Source: Patescibacteria group bacterium (GTDB lineage Bacteria > Patescibacteriota > Patescibacteriia > UBA9934). Taken from it: a stretch of DNA of 64,000 nucleotides. A model generated the notes under the pieces. It had not been told where the DNA came from. It did no database searches and worked only from the letters and a program-made list of their open reading frames with translations. Shown piece after piece: positions 3,350-58,753 of the stretch; the first letter of the stretch is position 1, and every line of letters begins with the position of its first letter. The stretch covers positions 8,507 to 72,506 of the forward strand of contig JBAZUI010000001.1 of the NCBI GenBank assembly GCA_041661425.1, given 5' to 3'. A program made the position numbers and the translations under genes.

Positions 3350-3381
3350 CCCCTCCTTAAATAAGGAGGGGTGAGGGGTGG
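3350..3381. repeat. palindromic repeat, copy 1: CCCCTCCTTAAATAAGGAGGGG + TGAGGGGTGG
   Basis: 22-nt perfect palindrome with a G-rich tail. A near-identical copy occurs at 10478-10508. Confidence 0.7.
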
Positions 3382-3391
3382 TCTTGAATTC

Positions 3392-3763
3392 ATGAATATG
3401 AATTATCGATTGTTCAATCTGAGAGATCAGAAGAAATTTCGTTCTAAGCTTAGAAATGATTCAACGGACGCCGAACAGAAGTTGTGGAGTTTTCTCCGTC
3501 ATTCTCAAATCGATAAGTTAAAATTCCGTCGACAACAAGGAATTGGACCGTACATTGTGGATTTCTATTGTCCAAAGATCAAACTCGTCGTCGAGATTGA
3601 TGGCGATTCGCATTTTGATGATCAGGGCATCGCCTACGATAAACAACGAACAGTATTTCTGCAACAGTTTGGTATTCGGGTAGTCAGATTTACGAATGTT
3701 GATATTCAAGAAACCATTGAAGGTGTGATCGAAGAAATAAGAAAAAAAATAACGTTTCGCTAG
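3392..3763 (+). CDS. DUF559 (Vsr-like endonuclease domain) protein
   Basis: Motifs KLWSFLR...FRRQQGIGPYIVDFYCP...VEIDGDSH are characteristic of the DUF559 / restriction-endonuclease-like fold. The gene is inserted between dnaK and dnaJ. Confidence 0.75.
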   Translation: MNMNYRLFNLRDQKKFRSKLRNDSTDAEQKLWSFLRHSQIDKLKFRRQQGIGPYIVDFYCPKIKLVVEIDGDSHFDDQGIAYDKQRTVFLQQFGIRVVRFTNVDIQETIEGVIEEIRKKITFR

Positions 3764-4853: not shown

Positions 4854-5387
4854 ATGGGAAATAGGCTTTGGTATAATAGACTCATGTCTTTTTCGTTTGA
4901 GAATCTTCTGAGTGCTTTCCCGTTCGATTCGTTCGACTTGTGGATGGCGGCTGGCGTTCTTGGGCTCGTTTTTATTTTTTTATTTACGATTGGACGGGAT
5001 TTTTCCGTGACCCTCATGCTTTCCGTTTATTTTTCACTGGTCAGCATGACCATGATTCCATTTTTGCGCGATCTTGATATTGATATCAGCTTTGAGGATT
5101 ATTGGGTGAAGTTGGTCATTTTTGGAGTTTTGATCGCGGTCTTTTTTTGGCTTCAAGTTCGCAATGAGTTTTTTGAGCCCTATACGGTTCCCACCGGCGG
5201 AGAGGTGATTGTTTTTGTTTTGGTCATTTCCGGCATGATTCTCTATGCCGCGGGAACCATGATCCCAGAACTTCTGCTTTTGGACATCTCTCCACTTATG
5301 CGAATGCTTTTTCTCGATGAACCGGCGGCGAATGTGTGGTTTACTTTGCCGATTCTTACCATGCTTTTTTTGCGCGGAAGGACTTAG
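4854..5387 (+). CDS. hypothetical polytopic membrane protein
   Basis: Several hydrophobic segments. An internal TGgTATAAT at 4869-4877 suggests the true start may be the ATG at 4884. Confidence 0.45.
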   Translation: MGNRLWYNRLMSFSFENLLSAFPFDSFDLWMAAGVLGLVFIFLFTIGRDFSVTLMLSVYFSLVSMTMIPFLRDLDIDISFEDYWVKLVIFGVLIAVFFWLQVRNEFFEPYTVPTGGEVIVFVLVISGMILYAAGTMIPELLLLDISPLMRMLFLDEPAANVWFTLPILTMLFLRGRT

Positions 5388-5459: not shown

Positions 5460-5473
5460 TGTCCGATCGGACC
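5460..5473. promoter_or_regulatory. operator-like palindrome TGTCCGATCGGACC upstream of the cassette-B promoter
   Basis: Near-perfect 14-nt palindrome sharing the core GTCCGATCGGAC with the palindromes at 13029-13042 and 13140-13153. Confidence 0.5.
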
Positions 5474-5541: not shown

Positions 5542-5934
5542 ATGGCACTCAGTGACATTTCCACGGTTTTTGTCATGAGTCCCCGTCGGTTCTACCGATG
5601 GTCGCTGCTTAGCTCCGTCGTCGTCTACGCACTCGGCGCCATTGCAGGAGCGGGAGGATTCGCTTTCGCAATTGGAGTTCACGTCCTGGTCGGTTTGTGC
5701 GGGGCAGGCGCTGAACACGACCTTGACATGAAGTACGTTATGGAGTTTGACTGGAAGGTCATGACCGGAATCCAGCGATTCAAGTACTTTTTTCTTCTCC
5801 TTGCCAAGAACATTACTCAGGGGGTCTTCGCCCCGTTCGTTTTGTCGTGGTACATCTACGAACAGTGGCGAGTCCTTCGGGACAGCCTTCGGAAACGTTC
5901 GCATCTCGTCGTCACCCGGATCGACATCAAATAG
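5542..5934 (+). CDS. GC-rich hypothetical small membrane protein (130 aa)
   Basis: Third codon positions are overwhelmingly G/C, unlike the flanking genes. Strong SD, two or three predicted TM segments, no recognisable family. Start chosen at MALSD because of the RBS. Confidence 0.55.
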   Translation: MALSDISTVFVMSPRRFYRWSLLSSVVVYALGAIAGAGGFAFAIGVHVLVGLCGAGAEHDLDMKYVMEFDWKVMTGIQRFKYFFLLLAKNITQGVFAPFVLSWYIYEQWRVLRDSLRKRSHLVVTRIDIK

Positions 5935-5996: not shown

Positions 5997-7376
5997 ATGG
6001 ATATCAAACTCTACAATACGCTTCATCGAACAAAAGAGATTTTTCACCCTATCCATGAGGGGAAGGTTGGAATTTATTGTTGCGGGCCAACTGTTTATCA
6101 GCGTGCTTCCATTGGAAATTTCCGCTCCTATGTTTTTGCGGATCTTCTTCGCAGAACATTAATTGCCAATGGATATGAGGTGAAACACATTGTGAATATC
6201 ACCGATGTGGGGCACCTGACGGATGATGCTTCTGCCGGGGAGGACAAGATGGAAAAAGCCGCCACGAATGCAGAAAAATCCGCATGGGATATTGCCGCGG
6301 AGTATACGGCTCTTTTTGAAGCGGATGCCGCGCATCTCAATATTCTTCCGCCAACCAAGATGCCAAAAGCAACGGATCACATTGGTGAACAAATAAAATT
6401 TATTGAGGATATCGAAAAAGCCGGATACGCGTATCAAATTTCAGATGGTCTGTATTTTGATACGGGCAAGCTTGAAAATTACGGCGAACTTTCACCACAG
6501 AAGTCAGAGGAGAAGGAAGAAGGCGCGCGGGTTGCAGTGAATGAGGAAAAAAGAAATCCAACGGATTTTGCTTTGTGGAAATTTTCACGCCAAGGAGAGC
6601 ATCGTCAAATGGAGTGGCCATCGCCGTGGGGAGTTGGGTTCCCTGGTTGGCATATTGAATGCTCGGCCATGAGTGAAAAATATCTTGATCTTCCGTTTGA
6701 TATTCACACGGGTGGAATCGATCATATTGCGGTTCATCACACGAATGAAATCGCACAAAGTCTGGCCGCACGCGGAGTGAACCCGGCAACATATTGGATG
6801 CACAATGCGTTTTTGCTCATCGATGGCGGGAAGATGTCCAAGTCGCTTGGGAATACCTATTCACTCGATGATTTGAAAGAGCGTGGAATTGAGCCGCTGG
6901 CGCTTCGTTATTTCTTTTTAGGGGCTCATTATCGCGTCCAAGAGAATTTCACTTGGGAAGCGATTGAAGCGGCACAGCACGCCCTTGATCATTTGCGTGA
7001 ACTAGCACAAAACCTCGATGTGCCAAGCAAGATTCACGAACCATCATTCGAAAAATTCACAACATTCATGAATGACGATCTCAATACTCCCGGAGCATTG
7101 GCCTTTGTTTGGGATTTTTTGCGTGAGGCTTCAATTCCCTCAGGTGAGAAAGCGGCGACCCTTTTAGAAATCGATAAATTTTTAGGACTCAATTTGGATC
7201 ACCCGGGTGCACAGCCACTTGCTATTCCAAGAGAGATTGAGGATTTGGTGCGAGCGCGTGAACGCGTGCGTGAGAAGCGGGATTTTGAAGCATCGGATCG
7301 TTTGCGAAATGAAATCGAAGAAAAAGGATACACCATCAAGGATTCAACAACAGGGCCAATCGTCGGACAAAAATAA
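5997..7376 (+). CDS. cysS: cysteine--tRNA ligase
   Basis: Motifs IYCCGPTVY, HIGN-like region, KMSKSLGN, and the CysRS anticodon-binding C-terminus. The ORF in the track is extended upstream across cassette B; MDIKLY is the plausible start. Confidence 0.93.
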   Translation: MDIKLYNTLHRTKEIFHPIHEGKVGIYCCGPTVYQRASIGNFRSYVFADLLRRTLIANGYEVKHIVNITDVGHLTDDASAGEDKMEKAATNAEKSAWDIAAEYTALFEADAAHLNILPPTKMPKATDHIGEQIKFIEDIEKAGYAYQISDGLYFDTGKLENYGELSPQKSEEKEEGARVAVNEEKRNPTDFALWKFSRQGEHRQMEWPSPWGVGFPGWHIECSAMSEKYLDLPFDIHTGGIDHIAVHHTNEIAQSLAARGVNPATYWMHNAFLLIDGGKMSKSLGNTYSLDDLKERGIEPLALRYFFLGAHYRVQENFTWEAIEAAQHALDHLRELAQNLDVPSKIHEPSFEKFTTFMNDDLNTPGALAFVWDFLREASIPSGEKAATLLEIDKFLGLNLDHPGAQPLAIPREIEDLVRARERVREKRDFEASDRLRNEIEEKGYTIKDSTTGPIVGQK

Positions 7377-7397: not shown

Positions 7398-7913
7398 ATG
7401 ACAGAAACAAAAGATCTAAAAGATCAATCTCTTCTTCCGGAAGGGGGTGAAGAACTTTTTGAGGTTCGGGTGGAAACAGCGGAAACACTTACATCGAAAG
7501 AGGCAACAAGAGATGCGACAGCAGAAGTGCAGGAACCGATGGCCGAACAACCTGCCGAGGCTCCTCACGTTTCACCGGTCCCTGTGCCTCCCATGGCGGT
7601 TGAAAAAGATCGTCTCACCAAAGAAATCGAGGAAATTCTTTCCAATGATTTGACGGATATCTATCTCACGCTTTCCGAAGATCGCAAAGTGGCCTTTCGA
7701 GAAAAAGGAGAAGAAGTGGCTGTCGCGATTCACGACATGATGAAAACCGGAAAATTAAAAGTGCAAAAAGTCTTGGAGTTGATTTTAGAGTGGTTACGAC
7801 TCATTCCTGGGATCAATAAATTTTTCTTGGAGCAGGAAGCAAAAATAAAAACCGACACGATTGTTCACCGATGGGAAGAAGAATCAATGCGTGTTGACAA
7901 TGGTCTTGTTTAA
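7398..7913 (+). CDS. hypothetical protein (acidic N-terminus, 171 aa)
   Basis: ORF only, no recognisable motifs. Immediately precedes the TraD-like ATPase gene. Confidence 0.4.
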   Translation: MTETKDLKDQSLLPEGGEELFEVRVETAETLTSKEATRDATAEVQEPMAEQPAEAPHVSPVPVPPMAVEKDRLTKEIEEILSNDLTDIYLTLSEDRKVAFREKGEEVAVAIHDMMKTGKLKVQKVLELILEWLRLIPGINKFFLEQEAKIKTDTIVHRWEEESMRVDNGLV

Positions 7914-10530: not shown

Positions 10531-10564
10531 AAAGCCCTCGGCCGAGACGACGGCTGAGGGCGAG
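10531..10564 (-). terminator. 34-bp hairpin repeat (copy 1) acting as terminator of minus-strand gene C1
   Basis: AAAGCCCTCGGCCGAGACGACGGCTGAGGGCGAG. On the minus strand it forms a hairpin followed by TTTTGATCGCC. An identical copy is at 11163-11196. Confidence 0.65.
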
Positions 10565-10586
10565 CAGTCTTGCGAAGCAAAGAAAA

Positions 10587-11045
10587 TCAGGGCGCAGCCG
10601 GCATCGAGTCGATGACAGCTGTGGGAGCTGGTGGCTCCGTCGAGAGGTCGATCTGCTCGAACCCTCCACGTGGATCGCTCGGAGGCATGGGGACTGATGG
10701 GATCCCGCCGTCCACGATGATCTGGTTGATCCTCTTGGCGTTTTCACACATCATGGGATCGCCCCCGGGCGCGCACGCCTCGACGACGTCCTGCCTCGAG
10801 CGCTCGTGCGTTCGAGCCTCGATCTTGTCGAGCTCCTCGGACTCGATCTTGTCGGGATGGGCGAGGAGCCATTCAATCCTCGCTTCGTCTTCCTCCTCCG
10901 TTGGAGTTCGCGATCCCTCGACGGCCGTGCTCATGGTTTGGAAGAGGAGGTATGACGAAACGCCTCCCACACAGATTCCTCCGGTTGCGAGACAGAGGAG
11001 GAGGATGATCACGATCAGCAGAACACTGTGTTTTCTCTTTTCCAT
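10587..11045 (-). CDS. GC-rich hypothetical membrane-anchored or secreted protein (153 aa)
   Basis: Start at MEKRK (ATG complement at 11043-11045), preceded by AGGAG. N-terminal basic stretch plus a TM helix (LLIVIILLLCLATGG), then a hydrophilic Pro/Glu-rich domain. G/C-rich codons. Confidence 0.5.
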   Translation of the reverse strand: MEKRKHSVLLIVIILLLCLATGGICVGGVSSYLLFQTMSTAVEGSRTPTEEEDEARIEWLLAHPDKIESEELDKIEARTHERSRQDVVEACAPGGDPMMCENAKRINQIIVDGGIPSVPMPPSDPRGGFEQIDLSTEPPAPTAVIDSMPAAP

Positions 11046-11120: not shown

Positions 11121-11162
11121 TAGCTTTGTACAGACCTTGCCGATTAAGCCCTTAGAAACACG

Positions 11163-11196
11163 AAAGCCCTCGGCCGAGACGACGGCTGAGGGCGAG
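11163..11196 (-). terminator. 34-bp hairpin repeat (copy 2), terminator of minus-strand gene C2
   Basis: Identical to 10531-10564. On the minus strand it is followed by TTTCGTGTTTCT. Confidence 0.65.
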
Positions 11197-11209
11197 AAGA
11201 CGAAGTAGA

Positions 11210-11353
11210 CTACCTGGCCTGGAAGTACCAGGTATGCAGATTCCCCGGGCTCGGGGAGTTAATGAGGCCACGCGACTGCAACGTGGCCACGAGAATCAAG
11301 AGCGCCAAGGCCATGAAGATCATGACCCCAATCGTACGCGGATTATCCGCCAT
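11210..11353 (-). CDS. GC-rich hypothetical small membrane peptide (47 aa)
   Basis: Start at MADNP with GGAGG 5 nt upstream. One TM helix (IGVMIFMALALLILVA). The longer track ORF (71 aa) has no SD. Confidence 0.4.
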   Translation of the reverse strand: MADNPRTIGVMIFMALALLILVATLQSRGLINSPSPGNLHTWYFQAR

Positions 11354-11386
11354 CGGAGCCTCCATGGCTTTTAGTAGACGGCTATT

Positions 11387-11415
11387 AGTATGCTCCTTTT
11401 TGTCCTTTCTGTCAA
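11387..11415 (-). promoter_or_regulatory. minus-strand promoter TTGACA-17-CATACT for gene C2, divergent from the dnaX promoter region
   Basis: Reverse complement of 11410-11415 is TTGACA, and of 11387-11392 is CATACT. Confidence 0.4.
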
Positions 11416-11459
11416 CCATTTCCATTCACAGGTGGTCGTGCTAAAATGCGGCTACCTCT

Positions 11460-12998
11460 ATGGTACATGAAGCAATTTATCGGAAATATCGCCCGCAAGT
11501 TTTTGCGGATATTGTGGGGCAGTCTCACATTCGAACCACGCTTGAAAATCAACTCAAAACAAATCGCGTGGCTCATGCCTATCTCTTTTCTGGTCCGCGA
11601 GGAATCGGAAAAACAACCTGTGCGCGATTACTTGCGAAAGCCGTGAATTGCGAGCAACGCAAAGAAGGAAGCTCGGAACCGTGCAATGCATGTGAAGCGT
11701 GTCAAAACTTTTTGGCCGGGCGATCACTCGATATCGTGGAAATCGATGCGGCAACTCATACGGGCGTTGAGAATGTCCGCGATACGATTATCGATGCTGT
11801 CCGTTTTGCTCCGGCCGCAGGAAAATTCAAGGTCTTCATCATCGATGAAGTCCACATGCTTTCAACATCATCATTTAATGCGTTATTAAAAACGCTCGAG
11901 GAACCACCGGCCTATGCCATTTTTATTCTCGCGACCACGGAAATGCAGAAGATTCCTGAGACAATTCTTTCACGGTGCCAACGATTTGATTTTCGTCGCA
12001 TGAGTCCGCAGGAGATGCTTGATCGTTTACACACGATCCTTACAGCCGAAGATGTCGAAATTGAAGAAGAAGTGTTGCGAGCAATTATCCGTGCTTCCGA
12101 AGGAGCTTTGCGTGATGCAGAAAGTCTTTTAGGACAAGTGCTCGCTCTTGGGGAAAAGAAAATCACCAAGGAACTCGCTTCGCTTGTGATTCCGGTTGGA
12201 TCGATTGAAACAACTTCACACATCATTGCGGCTCTTGTGATGGGTGATGAAAAAGCGGCAATGGAAACACTGATCTCGTTTCAGAATCAGGGTGGAATGC
12301 CAACACTTTTGCTCGATGAGATGATTGAATACGTTCGCATGATTCTATTTGAGCGCATTGGTGCGCCGCATGACGATCGTTATCCCGATGTCATCATGCA
12401 AGAAATTCGCGCTTTAGCAAAAACATTTAATGAAGAACAATGTCTTTCTCTTTTGAATCTGCTTCTTGATGCAAAAGCTCGACCAGCAACTGATCCATTT
12501 CCTTCACTCCCGCTTGAGCTCGCCATGGTTCTTTTTTGTACGCAAAAACCTCGATCGATTCCGGTGCCGGTGGTCGTCACAGCGCCTCCATGTGTTGAGG
12601 GGGCGGATCTCCTTAAAACAATTCCCATTCAAAAGGGAATGCCAGAGAAGAAAGCAGAACCGGTTGTGACGCCGGAAAAGAAAGCGAGTTTTACACTTGA
12701 AGAGGTTCAGAACAAATGGGGACGTTGTTGCGAGGCGGTTGGCGCGCGAAATATCGCGCTTCCCATGGCGCTCAATGAAGCACGTCCGGAATCGTTTGAT
12801 GTAGATGGGCGATTGTGTATTCGATTCGATCGGGAGTTTCATTTTGAAACGCTTAATAAGCCTGGGAATCTGAAGATTCTTACTGAGGCCATTGCGGAGG
12901 TGATGCAATCGCCGGTGGTAGTGATGCCGATTTTTACAAAGAAACCCGAAGGAGAAGTGAACGATTTAGCTCAACAATTCGGCGGGGAAGTGATGTAA
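11460..12998 (+). CDS. dnaX: DNA polymerase III subunit gamma/tau
   Basis: N-terminal YRKYRPQVFADIVGQ, P-loop GPRGIGKTT, DEVHML, and the clamp-loader C-terminal domains. An extended -10 TGCTAAAAT lies 20 nt upstream. Confidence 0.93.
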   Translation: MVHEAIYRKYRPQVFADIVGQSHIRTTLENQLKTNRVAHAYLFSGPRGIGKTTCARLLAKAVNCEQRKEGSSEPCNACEACQNFLAGRSLDIVEIDAATHTGVENVRDTIIDAVRFAPAAGKFKVFIIDEVHMLSTSSFNALLKTLEEPPAYAIFILATTEMQKIPETILSRCQRFDFRRMSPQEMLDRLHTILTAEDVEIEEEVLRAIIRASEGALRDAESLLGQVLALGEKKITKELASLVIPVGSIETTSHIIAALVMGDEKAAMETLISFQNQGGMPTLLLDEMIEYVRMILFERIGAPHDDRYPDVIMQEIRALAKTFNEEQCLSLLNLLLDAKARPATDPFPSLPLELAMVLFCTQKPRSIPVPVVVTAPPCVEGADLLKTIPIQKGMPEKKAEPVVTPEKKASFTLEEVQNKWGRCCEAVGARNIALPMALNEARPESFDVDGRLCIRFDREFHFETLNKPGNLKILTEAIAEVMQSPVVVMPIFTKKPEGEVNDLAQQFGGEVM

Positions 12999-13015
12999 TT
13001 GTTTTAATAAAATAG

Positions 13016-13055
13016 TGATGACAGAAGTGGTCCGATCGGACCACTTCTGTCATCA
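13016..13055. promoter_or_regulatory. 40-bp perfect palindrome TGATGACAGAAGTGGTCCGA|TCGGACCACTTCTGTCATCA (terminator for dnaX and/or operator; centre GGTCCGATCGGACC)
   Basis: Perfect 20+20 inverted repeat read directly, 17 bp upstream of the TTGACA at 13072. Confidence 0.6.
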
Positions 13056-13071
13056 GGGCGGTAACCGCGCG

Positions 13072-13100
13072 TTGACAGGTGCGCCTTTTTGGCGTATTAT
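13072..13100 (+). promoter_or_regulatory. sigma70-like promoter TTGACA-17-TATTAT
   Basis: Canonical hexamers with a 17-nt spacer, followed by a ~100-nt 5'UTR carrying a second palindrome. Confidence 0.55.
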
Positions 13101-13139
13101 TTTCGGTCCTTTTCTAACGTTATCGATCGTTTCATAAAT

Positions 13140-13153
13140 GGTCCGGTCGGACC
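13140..13153. promoter_or_regulatory. operator-like perfect palindrome GGTCCGGTCGGACC in the 5'UTR
   Basis: 14-nt perfect palindrome; a sibling of the core at 13029-13042 and of 5460-5473. Confidence 0.5.
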
Positions 13154-13201
13154 TTTTGTGAAACGATCACGCTCTTTCGTATTCTCATCCTGGAGGTTCC
13201 C

Positions 13202-14197
13202 ATGCTGTTCATTCTCCTTGTGGCTTGCGCGTCGCAGGTTGAGCAGGACTTCATGACTCATGACGAGGTTCTGCCTGAGGAGGAGGTTGTTGCGGAAAAA
13301 GTTTCACCGGTCCTCGCGACGATTCGACCTGAGGATGCGGCGCTCGCGGAAGCGCGACTCCTTGCGCAGAACTGTGACAACGAAGCCTTTCGGAAGGTGA
13401 CGTATCCGGATGATCCGTCGTCAACGTTCTGTCACTACATCGCGTACGCTCACTTGAGCGATCTCGAGGGTGAGTTCGATGTCTCGCAAGACATCGTCAA
13501 CCTCATCGATGTGAACTTCGAGTACATCGGGTACGAGGTGTATTGGACGACAATCGCACGCGAGAATGCGGGTTTTGCTGAGAACACTAATGTGCGATAC
13601 GTCGGTGTTCTCGAGTGGCTCTACACGCAATGGCAGGAGAAACTTGTTCAAGCGGGCCTTAAGGGAGGGGTCCGTTATAACAATCCCGCGCTCCTTCGCT
13701 CCTACCCTGCGGTTGTCACGAAATGCGAGGGCGACACGAGCTGGGGATGGACGGTTACGACTCTCAGCTACGTCGTGAGCGTGCTTCGCGGTCACCCGGG
13801 CGAGCATCACCTCTTGGACGAGAAGCTCGCCGCTGATGAGAAGATGTGGATGCGACGTGCGGCTGACACCTACCACATTGGCTGTATCGGTGACCGGGAC
13901 GAACGGAATTACGCGGAAGCGTACTTCTATTATTCCGAGGTCGGCGAAATGCCAATGGCTCGCAGGATCGCTCGCATGCAAGCCGAAGCCGGGCTTGCTC
14001 AATTGACGGGTCGAACGCCGTCATGCAACCGAGAATCCTGGTGTTCCTGGCGCCAAGGAGATCTCACCACATACATCATGTGGATGGAGAATGCGGGCAT
14101 GACGAAAGAGGAGCAATGGCTCGAGCTCAAAAAACTCGAAGCCAAACACCCGCCGCCCGAAGTCCTCGATCTCATCCGCTCTCACGAGCCGTCGTGA
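13202..14197 (+). CDS. GC-rich hypothetical lipoprotein (331 aa)
   Basis: GGAGG RBS. N-terminal MLFILLVAC is a lipobox-like signal peptide. G/C-ending codons throughout, no recognisable family. The antisense ORFs here are artefacts of GC richness. Confidence 0.55.
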   Translation: MLFILLVACASQVEQDFMTHDEVLPEEEVVAEKVSPVLATIRPEDAALAEARLLAQNCDNEAFRKVTYPDDPSSTFCHYIAYAHLSDLEGEFDVSQDIVNLIDVNFEYIGYEVYWTTIARENAGFAENTNVRYVGVLEWLYTQWQEKLVQAGLKGGVRYNNPALLRSYPAVVTKCEGDTSWGWTVTTLSYVVSVLRGHPGEHHLLDEKLAADEKMWMRRAADTYHIGCIGDRDERNYAEAYFYYSEVGEMPMARRIARMQAEAGLAQLTGRTPSCNRESWCSWRQGDLTTYIMWMENAGMTKEEQWLELKKLEAKHPPPEVLDLIRSHEPS

Positions 14198-14210
14198 CTC
14201 TGCCCTTCGT

Positions 14211-14249
14211 GGCCGTTCCTGCACCTGCGGGGACGGCCGCTGTATTTTA
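14211..14249 (+). terminator. rho-independent terminator (GGCCGTTCC...GGGACGGCC + TGTATTTTAT)
   Basis: GC stem followed by a T-rich run after the stop of 13202..14197. Confidence 0.5.
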
Positions 14250-14260
14250 TACAAAAAACT

Positions 14261-14306
14261 ATGAATTGATATTCATGGTTTTTTTGTGGTTCCCGGACAG
14301 GGATTC
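14261..14306. repeat. direct repeat duplicating the 3' end of tRNA-Gln plus flank (gatattcatggtt...tggttcccggacagggattc)
   Basis: A 20-nt exact match to 14461-14480, with matching flank gatatt(t)catggtt. This is an att-like duplication of the tRNA 3' end. Confidence 0.6.
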
Positions 14307-14460
14307 CTCCTCATCCGTCGTTCGCGTGTTCCCTCGGAACAGGCTCACTCCTCCTTCAGAGCCGGGGTCGTCCAAAACGTAAAGTAGTTTACGTTTTGTC
14401 CGTACCCTTCGAATCCCTGTCGTAAATAAAATATCGCCAGCCGAAGCTGTCGATATTTCA

Positions 14461-14534
14461 TGGTTCCCGGACAGGGATTCGAACCCCGATTCCCAGGACC
14501 AAAACCTGGTGTCCTGCCCTTAGACGATCCGGGA
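14461..14534 (-). tRNA. tRNA-Gln (anticodon TTG)
   Basis: Reverse complement folds by hand into a cloverleaf: acceptor TCCCGGA/TCCGGGA, D-stem GTCT/GGAC, anticodon stem CCAGG/CCTGG with loop TTTTGGT, T-arm CGGGG-TTCGAAT-CCCTG, CCA encoded; 74 nt. Confidence 0.8.
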
Positions 14535-14626
14535 TCAATGTGGCAAAAGAATACGAGAAAATAATTCTTTTGTCAATCCAATCAATCTGCTTGATTTTCC
14601 TTCACAAATCCGCTATCTTGAGCCTC

Positions 14627-15718
14627 ATGGAAACGAAAAAACAGCGCGTTTTGCTTGGGATGAGCGGCGGAGTCGATTCATCGGTTGCGGCTGTTTTATT
14701 ATTGGAGGCTGGCTATGTGGTGGTTGGCACCTTCATGAAGAATTGGAGCAATGGCACACAGAATTCAGAATGTGACTGGCGCGAGGAACGTCGCGATGCC
14801 ATGCGTGTGGCCGCTCAATTGGGAATCGAGCTTCACACGTTCGATTTTGAGAAGGAGTATCGCGCCGAAGTTTTTGAATACATGATTGCTGAGTATCGAT
14901 CCGGTCGGACTCCGAATCCCGATGTCTTGTGCAATAAATACATGAAGTTTGGTTACCTTCTCAATGAATCGAAAAAACTTGGTTGTGATTTTATCGCAAC
15001 CGGTCATTATGCACGTCTTCATCGCGATGCTCGCGGTGTGGCGCATCTTTTGGCGGGTGTGGATCCAGAAAAGGATCAAAGCTATTTTTTGTGCCAGCTC
15101 ACACAGGATCAACTCAAGCATTGTCTTTTTCCGATCGGCGATCTTCTGAAATCACGTGTGCGAGAAATTGCGCGTGCGCATGAACTTCCAGTAGCTGAAA
15201 AAAAAGATAGTCAGGGAATTTGTTTTATCGGTCAAGTTTCACTTTCAGATTTTTTGAAAACACGTATTCCACCGGTTCCTGGAAAGATTGTGACACCTGA
15301 TGGAACAATCCTCGGTAATCATCAGGGCTACGCGTACTACACCATTGGTCAGCGTGAAGGGTTGGGGATTGGCGGTGGCGAGCCTTATTTTGTCACGGAG
15401 ATTCGTCCGACGACGAATGAAGTTGTCGTTGCAAAGGAAGGAGATCCCGCGCTTTTTTCAAGTGGAGTTGAGGCGATTGGTGTTTCCGAGTCGATTCCCG
15501 GAATTCTAAAATCAAAAATTTCGTATCTTGCTCGCTTGCGATATCGTCAGCCACTCCTTGCGTGCACCATCGAATCGTTTGAGAATCAAAAGATGACGGT
15601 TCGATTTACGGAAGCACAACGTGCCGTGGCTCCGGGTCAATTCATCGCATTTTATGATCAGTCGGGTGAGGAATTGCTCGGATCCGCCATCATCGACAAA
15701 GCCCTTCATTTTGAGTAG
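14627..15718 (+). CDS. mnmA: tRNA 2-thiouridine(34) synthase MnmA
   Basis: PP-loop VLLGMSGGVDSSVAA plus conserved Cys residues. The longer upstream ORF has no support. Confidence 0.9.
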   Translation: METKKQRVLLGMSGGVDSSVAAVLLLEAGYVVVGTFMKNWSNGTQNSECDWREERRDAMRVAAQLGIELHTFDFEKEYRAEVFEYMIAEYRSGRTPNPDVLCNKYMKFGYLLNESKKLGCDFIATGHYARLHRDARGVAHLLAGVDPEKDQSYFLCQLTQDQLKHCLFPIGDLLKSRVREIARAHELPVAEKKDSQGICFIGQVSLSDFLKTRIPPVPGKIVTPDGTILGNHQGYAYYTIGQREGLGIGGGEPYFVTEIRPTTNEVVVAKEGDPALFSSGVEAIGVSESIPGILKSKISYLARLRYRQPLLACTIESFENQKMTVRFTEAQRAVAPGQFIAFYDQSGEELLGSAIIDKALHFE

Positions 15719-17680: not shown

Positions 17681-18682
17681 ATGTTGCCAAAACCTTCAAA
17701 GAATAGACCGTCCCGAAAAGTTATTGGCCTTTCTCTGTTTTTGGCTGGCTGTGATGGAATTCCAAATTGGATTCATCCGCTCGATGCCGAACAGCAGGAT
17801 TTGGTGGATGATTTCGTGATTCGTGAAAAGTTTGAACGGCCGATTGTAAAAGATTTTTTTCGCGCCGCCGATTTTTTATTATTTGATGCAAAGGGATCTT
17901 CTTCGACTAATCAAGTCATCGATGATGTTGAGACAGCCGGAGAAGATTTGAAATTTTTCCATGAAGATCATCGGATCTTCGCCTATACCGAAGAAGATGC
18001 AAAGCGAGAAACCGGAGATTGGACCGCATTTGAACGCCATCAACCTTTTTCAAAAGATTTTATTGCACTTAATGAGCGTTATCAAAATTTATGGTCCTCG
18101 GCGGTTTTGATGCATGAATCCGCTCATGGATTAACGCGAAAAGCCTCTCATTCCAAAACGATGTTAACGTGGCTCGATAACCATCCCGAGCCGGAGATGG
18201 ATGATGCGTTAGCGGAAATTACCATGCAAGAAAAAGATTTTCCTTTTCTTGTGATGGGATTCTACGATGCCATTGATCGAAAAGTCAGTGAGTTCAAGTG
18301 GAGAATTGATCAAAAATTTATTTCCCTTCGTGATGAAGTGGAACAAGGGACTCTGACGCCAAAAGAAGCCATCCATTATATCGAGTCCACGATGCAAGAA
18401 CCCGATTATCAGTTGAATCCTGTTGATGTCCGAGGGCATGCGGAGGATTGGGCAAGCGATTTTTATCGTCCCGACGATTCATTCGTGAATTTTTTGGAAC
18501 CTTTTGGAGTGACTCGCGAGGAATATTTTTACGTGATTGTGAATCACCCCGATGTGTTTAACTATCTTGAAGATTACTATTCCTTGCGGACCCAGGAGTT
18601 TCGCGCTGAATTTACCGAAGAAACTCGACGTGAGATGGCTGAGGAACGACGTCGATCAATCAAGAGCCGGCTCGTGCGCTAG
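17681..18682 (+). CDS. hypothetical lipoprotein
   Basis: Signal peptide with lipobox LFLAGC; hydrophilic body, no recognisable family. Confidence 0.45.
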   Translation: MLPKPSKNRPSRKVIGLSLFLAGCDGIPNWIHPLDAEQQDLVDDFVIREKFERPIVKDFFRAADFLLFDAKGSSSTNQVIDDVETAGEDLKFFHEDHRIFAYTEEDAKRETGDWTAFERHQPFSKDFIALNERYQNLWSSAVLMHESAHGLTRKASHSKTMLTWLDNHPEPEMDDALAEITMQEKDFPFLVMGFYDAIDRKVSEFKWRIDQKFISLRDEVEQGTLTPKEAIHYIESTMQEPDYQLNPVDVRGHAEDWASDFYRPDDSFVNFLEPFGVTREEYFYVIVNHPDVFNYLEDYYSLRTQEFRAEFTEETRREMAEERRRSIKSRLVR

Positions 18683-58327: not shown

Positions 58328-58453
58328 ATGTCCACCCGCCCCAACAATGCCCCTTTTGGCCTTGCGAATGATATCGCGGGGCACCTCCTTTTTTCCGCCG
58401 CCGGCCTCACGCTGGCGGTCCTCATCCTTCTCTGCATGGGCACCCCTTACTAG
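58328..58453 (+). CDS. GC-rich hydrophobic micro-peptide (41 aa, one TM helix)
   Basis: GGAGGA 6 nt upstream of the ATG. Peptide MSTRPNNAPFGLANDIAGHLLFSAAGLTLAVLILLCMGTPY. Sits between a strong promoter and a hairpin terminator. Confidence 0.5.
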   Translation: MSTRPNNAPFGLANDIAGHLLFSAAGLTLAVLILLCMGTPY

Positions 58454-58472: not shown

Positions 58473-58500
58473 CCCGCAGGCCACTTGGTTCTGCGGGTTT
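58473..58500. terminator. hairpin terminator CCCGCAG...CTGCGGG + TTT (shared by convergent genes)
   Basis: 7-bp GC stem followed by a T-run. Confidence 0.5.
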
Positions 58501-58753
58501 AGCGTTTATAAGCTGAAAGAAAATTATAGAGCCAAGCAAACACCGCACAACCTGCTGCGGCATCCACAAATCCCCAGACCGCGCCGACAATGGCGCCAAC
58601 CGGCCCGGGCACATAGCCGATATAGACCGAGGACATGAGCTCGACCAAGGCCTCGCCATAATGGAGGTACATAGCCAAGAGGGCAAGAACAAAAGAAGCG
58701 AACGACCATAAAATGTCGCCGCTTAATGCGAACGCTTTTACATTGATTGTCAT
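58499..58753 (-). CDS. hypothetical small membrane protein (84 aa, 2-3 TM)
   Basis: Hydrophobic, with Gly-rich helices (GPVGAIVGAVWGF). ORF only. Confidence 0.4.
   Translation of the reverse strand: MTINVKAFALSGDILWSFASFVLALLAMYLHYGEALVELMSSVYIGYVPGPVGAIVGAVWGFVDAAAGCAVFAWLYNFLSAYKR

Follow-up and report, generated by a model that had tools for sequence, protein, structure and literature searches.

A lineage-specific orphan gene with its own promoter, probably encoding an exported or membrane-tethered protein, beside a partial tRNA-Gln duplication in a Patescibacteria genome

The window analyzed here is a stretch of 64,000 nucleotides from a Patescibacteria group bacterium (assembly GCA_041661425.1, contig JBAZUI010000001.1, positions 8,507 to 72,506 of the forward strand), and its subject is an orphan open reading frame (ORF) located on the plus strand between dnaX and a tRNA-Gln gene (13202-14197). 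The ORF encodes a protein of 331 residues with the N-terminus MLFILLVAC, an acidic linker and a body rich in Cys, Trp and Tyr and predicted as mostly helical, with an isoelectric point of 4.8. A perfect palindrome (P1, 13016-13055, 40/40 positions, core GGTCCGATCGGACC) begins 17 nt past the dnaX stop codon, and a gap of 16 nt separates it from the -35 box of a sigma-70-type promoter, TTGACA-17-TATTAT (13072-13100, plus strand), which matches at 11 of 12 positions. The leader carries a stem-loop (P2, 13125-13168, plus strand, core GGTCCGGTCGGACC) of 19 bp with one mismatch, and a Shine-Dalgarno sequence, GGAGG (13192-13196, plus strand), precedes the ATG at a spacing of 5 nt. An intrinsic terminator (14209-14250, plus strand), with a 14-bp G+C-rich stem followed by a T-run, begins 11 nt past the stop codon. 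Between this cassette and the tRNA module lies an AT-rich hairpin flanked by A6 and T7 (14253-14285), which is bidirectional-terminator-like and produced weak, sub-threshold Rfam matches. The tRNA-Gln(UUG) gene is on the minus strand (14461-14534) behind the promoter TTGACA-17-TATTCT (14548-14576, minus strand), and is followed by its trailer (14307-14460, minus strand) and by an exact 20-nt direct copy of the tRNA 3' end (14287-14306, minus strand; GAATCCCTGTCCGGGAACCA on that strand), identical at 20/20 positions to 14461-14480.

The orphan ORF was treated as a real gene because of its length, its codon-position composition and the promoter, Shine-Dalgarno sequence and terminator that serve it. 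In 13001-14300 the longest run without a stop was 359 codons, a length reached in 0 of 1000 shuffles (mean 121, maximum 257), and the GC content at first, second and third codon positions (GC1/GC2/GC3) was 0.62/0.41/0.67. No in-frame ATG, GTG or TTG was found 5' of the start. A 193-residue antisense ORF overlapping the gene is a by-product in the mirror frame, as is usual for GC3-rich genes. The cassette forms a self-contained transcription unit, with a near-consensus sigma-70 promoter, a leader, a strong Shine-Dalgarno sequence, the 331-codon ORF and an intrinsic terminator. Only two promoters in the whole 64 kb match at 11 of 12 positions, that of the orphan gene among them. The predicted transcription start falls at approximately 13105-13107, and the distance from the -10 box to the ATG is 101 nt, which implies a 5' untranslated region (5'UTR) of approximately 96 nt. 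Folding of the leader gave z = -3.8 and was dominated by P2, which appears in both the minimum free energy (MFE) and centroid folds, while pairing of the Shine-Dalgarno sequence with CCUUU at 13108-13112 was seen in the MFE fold only. Rfam returned no family for the leader, only weak, chance-level hairpin matches well below gathering scores. AT-rich imperfect inverted repeats of 19 nt (15/19 positions) flank the cassette at 12996-13014 and 14243-14261 and were matched in 0 of 500 mononucleotide shuffles; these were not counted as transposon ends because they are made of terminator-type A and T runs.

The protein is recorded once, as NCBI entry 'MAG: hypothetical protein WC730_00110 [Patescibacteria group bacterium]' on a contig of 118,031 bp. 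A word-indexed search of 5.8e9 clustered proteins matched the protein to itself alone, and an exhaustive HMMER pass over 1.84e9 representatives returned the protein itself and two matches at E~1e-4, which were unrelated repetitive proteins without a common domain and were treated as noise. No match was found in Pfam, NCBIfam, PHROGs, PADLOC or PDB sequences, or in Rfam, nor was anything recovered by tblastn against phages and plasmids or by a peptide-pattern scan of viral contigs. On these searches the protein is a true orphan, without known relatives. A preliminary description of this DNA, made from the letters alone, had reported a 331-residue ORF with the lipobox MLFILLVAC and no recognisable domain, G/C-rich codons, a 40-bp perfect palindrome, a consensus promoter, a leader of about 100 nt holding a second palindrome and an adjoining partial duplication of tRNA-Gln; all of these were borne out, and the homology search and the comparison with relatives which it had proposed as checks found, respectively, only the protein itself and no copy of the gene in the closest syntenic relative or any other.

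With respect to cellular location, the eight N-terminal residues of the orphan protein are extremely hydrophobic (mean hydropathy before the Cys 3.3) and end at the lipobox L-V-A-C, so that the pattern [LVI][ASTVI][GAS]C with a preceding hydrophobic region is present with Cys as residue 9. Next comes the acidic linker, and the body has six further Cys residues; the contents of Cys (2.1%), Trp (3.0%) and Tyr (5.1%) each exceed the window mean by about two standard deviations. A DsbA-like thioredoxin and VKOR are also encoded in the window, and oxidative folding of the orphan protein outside the cytoplasm is therefore plausible. Taken together, these sequence features suggest that the product is probably membrane-associated or exported, in which case it would count among the strain-specific proteins of the envelope or surface. 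The PROSITE lipoprotein rule places the Cys at 15-35 and calls for Lys or Arg within the first 7 residues, and G+LPP is a second such pattern. The signal is too short to be called that of a canonical Lgt/Lsp lipoprotein, and we prefer 'probably membrane-associated or exported' to 'lipoprotein' because the Cys is at residue 9, Lys and Arg are lacking and both patterns fail. Thus the lipobox in the earlier term 'secreted lipoprotein' stood, the canonical lipoprotein did not, and it is doubtful from the sequence that the product is a bona fide one. The 47 window ORFs scanned with Pfam, a subset of all, included neither Lgt nor LspA (signal peptidase II). A 333-residue lipoprotein encoded at 17681-18682 (MLPKPSKNRPSRKVIGLSLFLAGC) passes both the PROSITE-type and the G+LPP patterns, with its Cys at 24, and contains an HExxH motif (HESAH). 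This gene directly follows tRNA-Arg, is also a complete orphan and has a host-typical GC3 of 0.40; no tRNA-Arg repeat flanks it, and in the closest relative other genes lie between tRNA-Arg and recJ. It was rejected as a paralog of the orphan protein, as the Smith-Waterman score was reached in 50 of 300 shuffles.

The closest dnaX in public data was 67% identical and belongs to a relative (L082) which is collinear with the window over more than 20 kb, including hrcA-grpE-dnaK-dnaJ, cysS, a TraG/VirD4-like ATPase gene, dnaX, mnmA, lepA, tRNA-Arg, recJ and pilM. In this relative dnaX, tRNA-Gln and mnmA lie within 254 bp and the orphan ORF is absent. The order dnaX then tRNA-Gln was found in 28 of 48 further relatives' loci scanned, and no relative of the orphan ORF was present in any of the relatives' loci fetched. 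Since synteny in L082 is intact without the ORF, the segment of approximately 1.29 kb at 12999-14286 is best described as an insertion in the lineage of the window. At the same dnaX/tRNA-Gln junction two other relatives (L084 and L021) have other lineage-specific genes; the 231-residue gene found there in L084 is unrelated to the orphan ORF. A lineage-specific orphan insertion between conserved housekeeping genes is ordinary for Patescibacteria genomes.

Other intervals of the same collinear region also differ between the window and its relatives. The TraG/VirD4-like ATPase gene and dnaX abut or lie within ~60 nt in many relatives, and L082 has two 41-residue membrane peptides between them. 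In the window this interval contains two minus-strand genes, each followed by one copy of a 34-bp direct repeat which is itself a hairpin (10532-10566 and 11162-11196). Between dnaK and dnaJ the window carries a DUF559 (endonuclease-like) ORF (3371-3763), where L082 has only a 62-residue ORF; a selfish element inserted into the heat-shock operon is the probable explanation.

L082 has an identical tRNA-Gln sequence, oriented the other way with respect to dnaX and mnmA, and the tRNA promoters of the two genomes are orthologous. Reading from the tRNA, the trailer starts with a terminator hairpin (14426-14461); next, at +40 to +53, come 13-14 nt of T-loop and T-stem sequence in inverted orientation (14 nt in the window, 14408-14421), then variable hairpins and lastly, at +98 to +182, 16-20 nt that directly repeat the tRNA 3' end. 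The inverted T-arm fragment pairs with the direct copy. The same architecture was present in L082 (11721-11837) and in the distant L021 (7047-7244), whose tRNA sequence differs, and neither has the orphan gene. In each of these three divergent Patescibacteria the trailer copies match that lineage's own tRNA, and pairing of the inverted with the direct copy closes a multibranch fold of very high stability (z = -7.3 in the window, -5.4 and -6.3 in the relatives). Rfam returned no family for the trailer. The repeats bound only 154 bp (14307-14460), with the orphan ORF outside, and no third copy was found in 12900-14650. The tRNA duplication was therefore not read as a scar of the orphan gene's integration, as the gene lies outside the repeats and the architecture occurs in relatives without it. 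The tRNA-Gln module predates the orphan gene, and may be either a structured trailer or an old att remnant without an integrase. The duplication marks a recombination-prone spot and is not the site used to integrate the orphan gene. A further sign of a recombination-prone locus was seen in L021, in which approximately 21 nt of the tRNA-Gln 5' end (7297-7317) are duplicated approximately 170 nt beyond the gene (7468-7490).

P1 and P2 have in common the core GGTCCG-NN-CGGACC, which occurs three times in the window against 0.11 expected; the third copy (5460-5473) has one mismatch and lies in P3 (5448-5485), a P1-like palindrome that is 82% self-complementary and identical to P1 at approximately 30 of 40 positions. 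P3 starts 60 nt after the stop codon of the gene at 4854-5387 and ends 3 nt before the TTGACA promoter of the gene at 5542-5934, and in L082 a simple terminator hairpin occupies its position. P1 and P3 were the top two among seven short-loop inverted repeats in the window, and P1 was the second longest of the 8 perfect palindromes of at least 22 bp in approximately 960 kb of related DNA. The arms of P2 (13125-13145 and 13148-13168) are 21 nt each and 90% complementary. On the basis of these likenesses P1, P2 and P3 were grouped as hairpin elements of one small family. The most likely role of P1 would be that of a hairpin terminator or insulator separating dnaX from the cassette, and P2 would most likely act as a leader stem-loop affecting mRNA stability or processing; a 19-bp leader stem is long enough for RNase III-type cleavage or an effect on mRNA stability. 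The T-rich tail of P1 is on the minus strand only, the plus strand having the stem followed by GGGCGG.

Searches for the palindromes elsewhere gave 0 matches to the P1/P3 family pattern in metagenome contigs and 0 matches to a P1 20-mer in viral contigs. The 18-bp apex of P1 was found in 55 metagenome contigs, in 31 of them inside perfect palindromes of at least 24 bp. These palindromes have lineage-specific arms with compensatory changes and lie mostly just 3' of genes or between convergent genes, with no common neighbouring gene family around them. Conservation of the apex across phyla was not claimed, because only nine positions are free, approximately five families are represented and an effect of search selection is possible. 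Two unrelated metagenome contigs (L100 at ~445-545 and L116 at ~800-880) each have two adjacent palindromes with the apex (G)GTCCGATCGGAC(C) and different arms, an arrangement which mirrors that of P1 and P2. Two others, L086 (Ga0123353_10022143) and L095 (Ga0123355_10011650), are whole-contig perfect fold-backs of 9.6 and 13.6 kb with eukaryote-like sequence, both centred on the apex GTGGTCCGATCGGACCAC with approximately 60 nt of common flank; these could have arisen as artefacts of assembly or of the library, or could represent a fold-back element.

The composition of the orphan ORF differs from that of the housekeeping genes. Its GC content is 0.564 and its GC3 0.669, compared with a GC3 of 0.39-0.52 in housekeeping genes, and among codons ending in C or T the fraction ending in C (NNC) is 0.66, compared with 0.17-0.36 in housekeeping and 0.23 in ribosomal-protein genes. 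The correlation of relative synonymous codon usage (RSCU) between the orphan and housekeeping genes was 0.43, while that of housekeeping genes among themselves was 0.70-0.93. Codon adaptation to high expression does not explain the G/C-rich codons, because the ribosomal-protein genes, at a GC3 of 0.445, are not GC3-rich. Five genes for small membrane proteins (5542-5934 on the plus strand, 10587-11045 and 11210-11362 on the minus strand, 58328-58453 on the plus strand and 58499-58753 on the minus strand) have a GC3 of 0.66-0.80 in a genome of 47% GC, and each sits behind a perfect TTGACA-17 promoter. The codon usage of the orphan correlates with that of these genes at r = 0.57, above its value for housekeeping genes.

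Two stretches of the window, 11163-13045 and 13026-14490, are reproduced without a difference by independent Logan contigs (SRR18595301), whose ends fall inside P1 and inside the tRNA. One of these contigs (L001) joins the ORF unbroken to the direct repeat, the trailer and the tRNA 3' end, and as it spans both, the link between the ORF and the tRNA module is independently supported.

On balance we favour, with moderate confidence, a lineage-specific orphan cassette with its own promoter and a probably exported or membrane-tethered product, placed beside the tRNA-Gln partial duplication but not by way of it. The preliminary description had instead thought the locus, with its tRNA-Gln att-like duplication, consistent with an integrated foreign gene under tight repression; in full, this would make it cargo inserted site-specifically into the tRNA-Gln 3' end and silenced by a repressor acting on the two promoter-flanking palindromes. 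The exact 20-nt repeat does start in the T-loop, as integrase att sites typically do, the gene is missing from relatives with conserved flanks and has atypical codon usage, and P1 and P2 bracket the promoter with a common 14-bp dyad core. Of the hallmarks of a tRNA island, then, the direct 3'-end repeat was found, and absence from relatives together with atypical composition was also found, although a syntenic gene is equally GC3-rich; cargo between tRNA and repeat was not found, and neither was an adjacent integrase. The gene lies outside the 154-bp segment, the same repeats occur in L082 and L021 without it, no third copy of the repeat is present in 12900-14650, and no integrase, transposase or recombinase domain was detected in the 47 ORFs scanned. 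As for silencing, the centres of P1 and P2 are 111 bp apart, or approximately 10.6 helical turns, a spacing out of phase and therefore against repressor looping between them; no regulator is adjacent, and 40-bp stems are far longer than typical operators. Tight repression found no support, because the promoter and the Shine-Dalgarno sequence are among the strongest in the window, and P1 and P3 both lie just past stop codons; expression would more likely be strong than silenced. A dedicated repressor operator in P1 or P2 is unlikely, and integration into the tRNA with silencing as a whole is quite improbable. Of the word 'foreign', absence from relatives and atypical codons survive as observations, and composition alone was no proof of recent import.

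That last point bears equally on the view that the gene is native, fast-evolving and vertically inherited, was lost in the lineage of L082 and owes its G/C-rich codons to its place in a resident class of membrane-protein genes that are GC3-rich and strongly promoted. The gene at 5542-5934 (mem130, GC3 0.66) has a syntenic ortholog in L082 with a GC3 of 0.82, several other small membrane-protein genes pair a GC3 of 0.66-0.80 with perfect TTGACA promoters, and the orphan's codon usage is closer to this class than to housekeeping genes. Because a syntenically conserved gene is equally GC3-rich, composition alone neither proves recent transfer nor dates the acquisition. No homolog was found at any distance among approximately 15 billion proteins, however, the gene is also absent from L084 and from more distant relatives, and the ancestral spacing between dnaX and tRNA-Gln is short in many lineages, which makes native descent rather unlikely. 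An artefact, in which 1.3 kb of G/C-rich DNA was mis-joined at the palindrome and the conserved tRNA or in which the ORF is not expressed as protein, would account for the Logan contigs ending inside P1 and inside the tRNA, for the distinct composition of the segment and for the long antisense ORF. It is highly improbable: L001 links the ORF to a tRNA module whose architecture matches that of relatives, the P1-like P3 lies elsewhere on the same contig, both joins would need to be chimeric, and ORF length, Shine-Dalgarno sequence, promoter and terminator favour a real gene. Several observations nevertheless weigh against the insertion of an orphan cassette with an exported product as we describe it. 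The dnaX of even the closest relative is only 67% identical, and for this reason gain in the window's lineage is not strictly separable from loss in L082; and the junction of dnaX, P1 and the ORF is backed only by the submitter's assembly. For the protein, the signal fails both classical lipoprotein patterns, and a single-sequence AlphaFold model was mostly helical, had a predicted local distance difference test score of 38.7 and was unusable. For the palindromes, the sense strand of P1 has no U-tract as a canonical intrinsic terminator would, so that its terminator activity is assumed and not predicted; P2 lies in a 5'UTR and not at a gene 3' end; and a conserved core with variable arms could equally fit a protein-binding site.

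Candidate-phyla bacteria attach to host cells, and strain-specific envelope proteins are likely host-range determinants, almost none of which has a known function. The locus offers a cleanly delimited case, in which an orphan and probably exported protein with a strong promoter of its own occupies a conserved housekeeping junction. It also carries two cautions for genome scans, namely that a partial tRNA repeat beside an odd gene need not be its integration scar and that G/C-rich codons need not signal recent import. Across Patescibacteria, the conserved trailer architecture of tRNA-Gln and the class of GC3-rich genes offer small leads. A very speculative extension, to which we give little credence, is that the dnaX/tRNA-Gln trailer module is a miniature recombination site, integrase-independent or served in trans, which captures self-promoted GC3-rich cassettes for orphan surface proteins, with the GGTCCG-NN-CGGACC palindromes travelling along as a mobile insulator or processing element.

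Several known systems invite comparison. Like tRNA-linked genomic islets and integrase-less, att-flanked remnants (CIME-type), the locus has a partial tRNA 3' repeat beside lineage-specific genes and a junction that varies among relatives; unlike them, it has the orphan outside the repeat-bounded segment, no integrase found, and a repeat that also occurs in genomes without the gene. The inner dyad of P1 and P2 (TGTCCGATCGGACA or GTCCGATCGGAC) is shared with rpaO, the LuxR-type operator of RpaR, which matches over the inner 12 nt and reads ACCTGTCCGATCGGACAGTA (bioRxiv 10.64898/2026.05.13.724834). The lux-type boxes have the form CTG-N10-CAG, whereas P1 and P2 have TGG-N10-CCA, and no LuxR-family protein is encoded in the window; with both the CTG/CAG arms and the protein missing, a lux-type box was rejected and the likeness is probably coincidental. 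Compared with bacterial lipoproteins (Lgt/LspA substrates; PROSITE PROKAR_LIPOPROTEIN), the orphan protein shares the lipobox after a hydrophobic stretch, the acidic flexible linker and the Cys-rich body, and differs in the early position of its Cys, the absence of a Lys/Arg n-region and an h-region of approximately 7 residues. A REP/RAYT system comprises many dispersed copies and a RAYT (Y1 transposase) gene, and no such gene was found among the scanned window ORFs. P1 to P3 also differ from REP/BIME-like elements and hairpin terminators in that only three copies are visible in 64 kb, the sense strand of P1 has no U-tract and one copy is in a 5'UTR. What they have in common with these elements is that they are several related intergenic palindromes with long stems, lying mostly just past stop codons.

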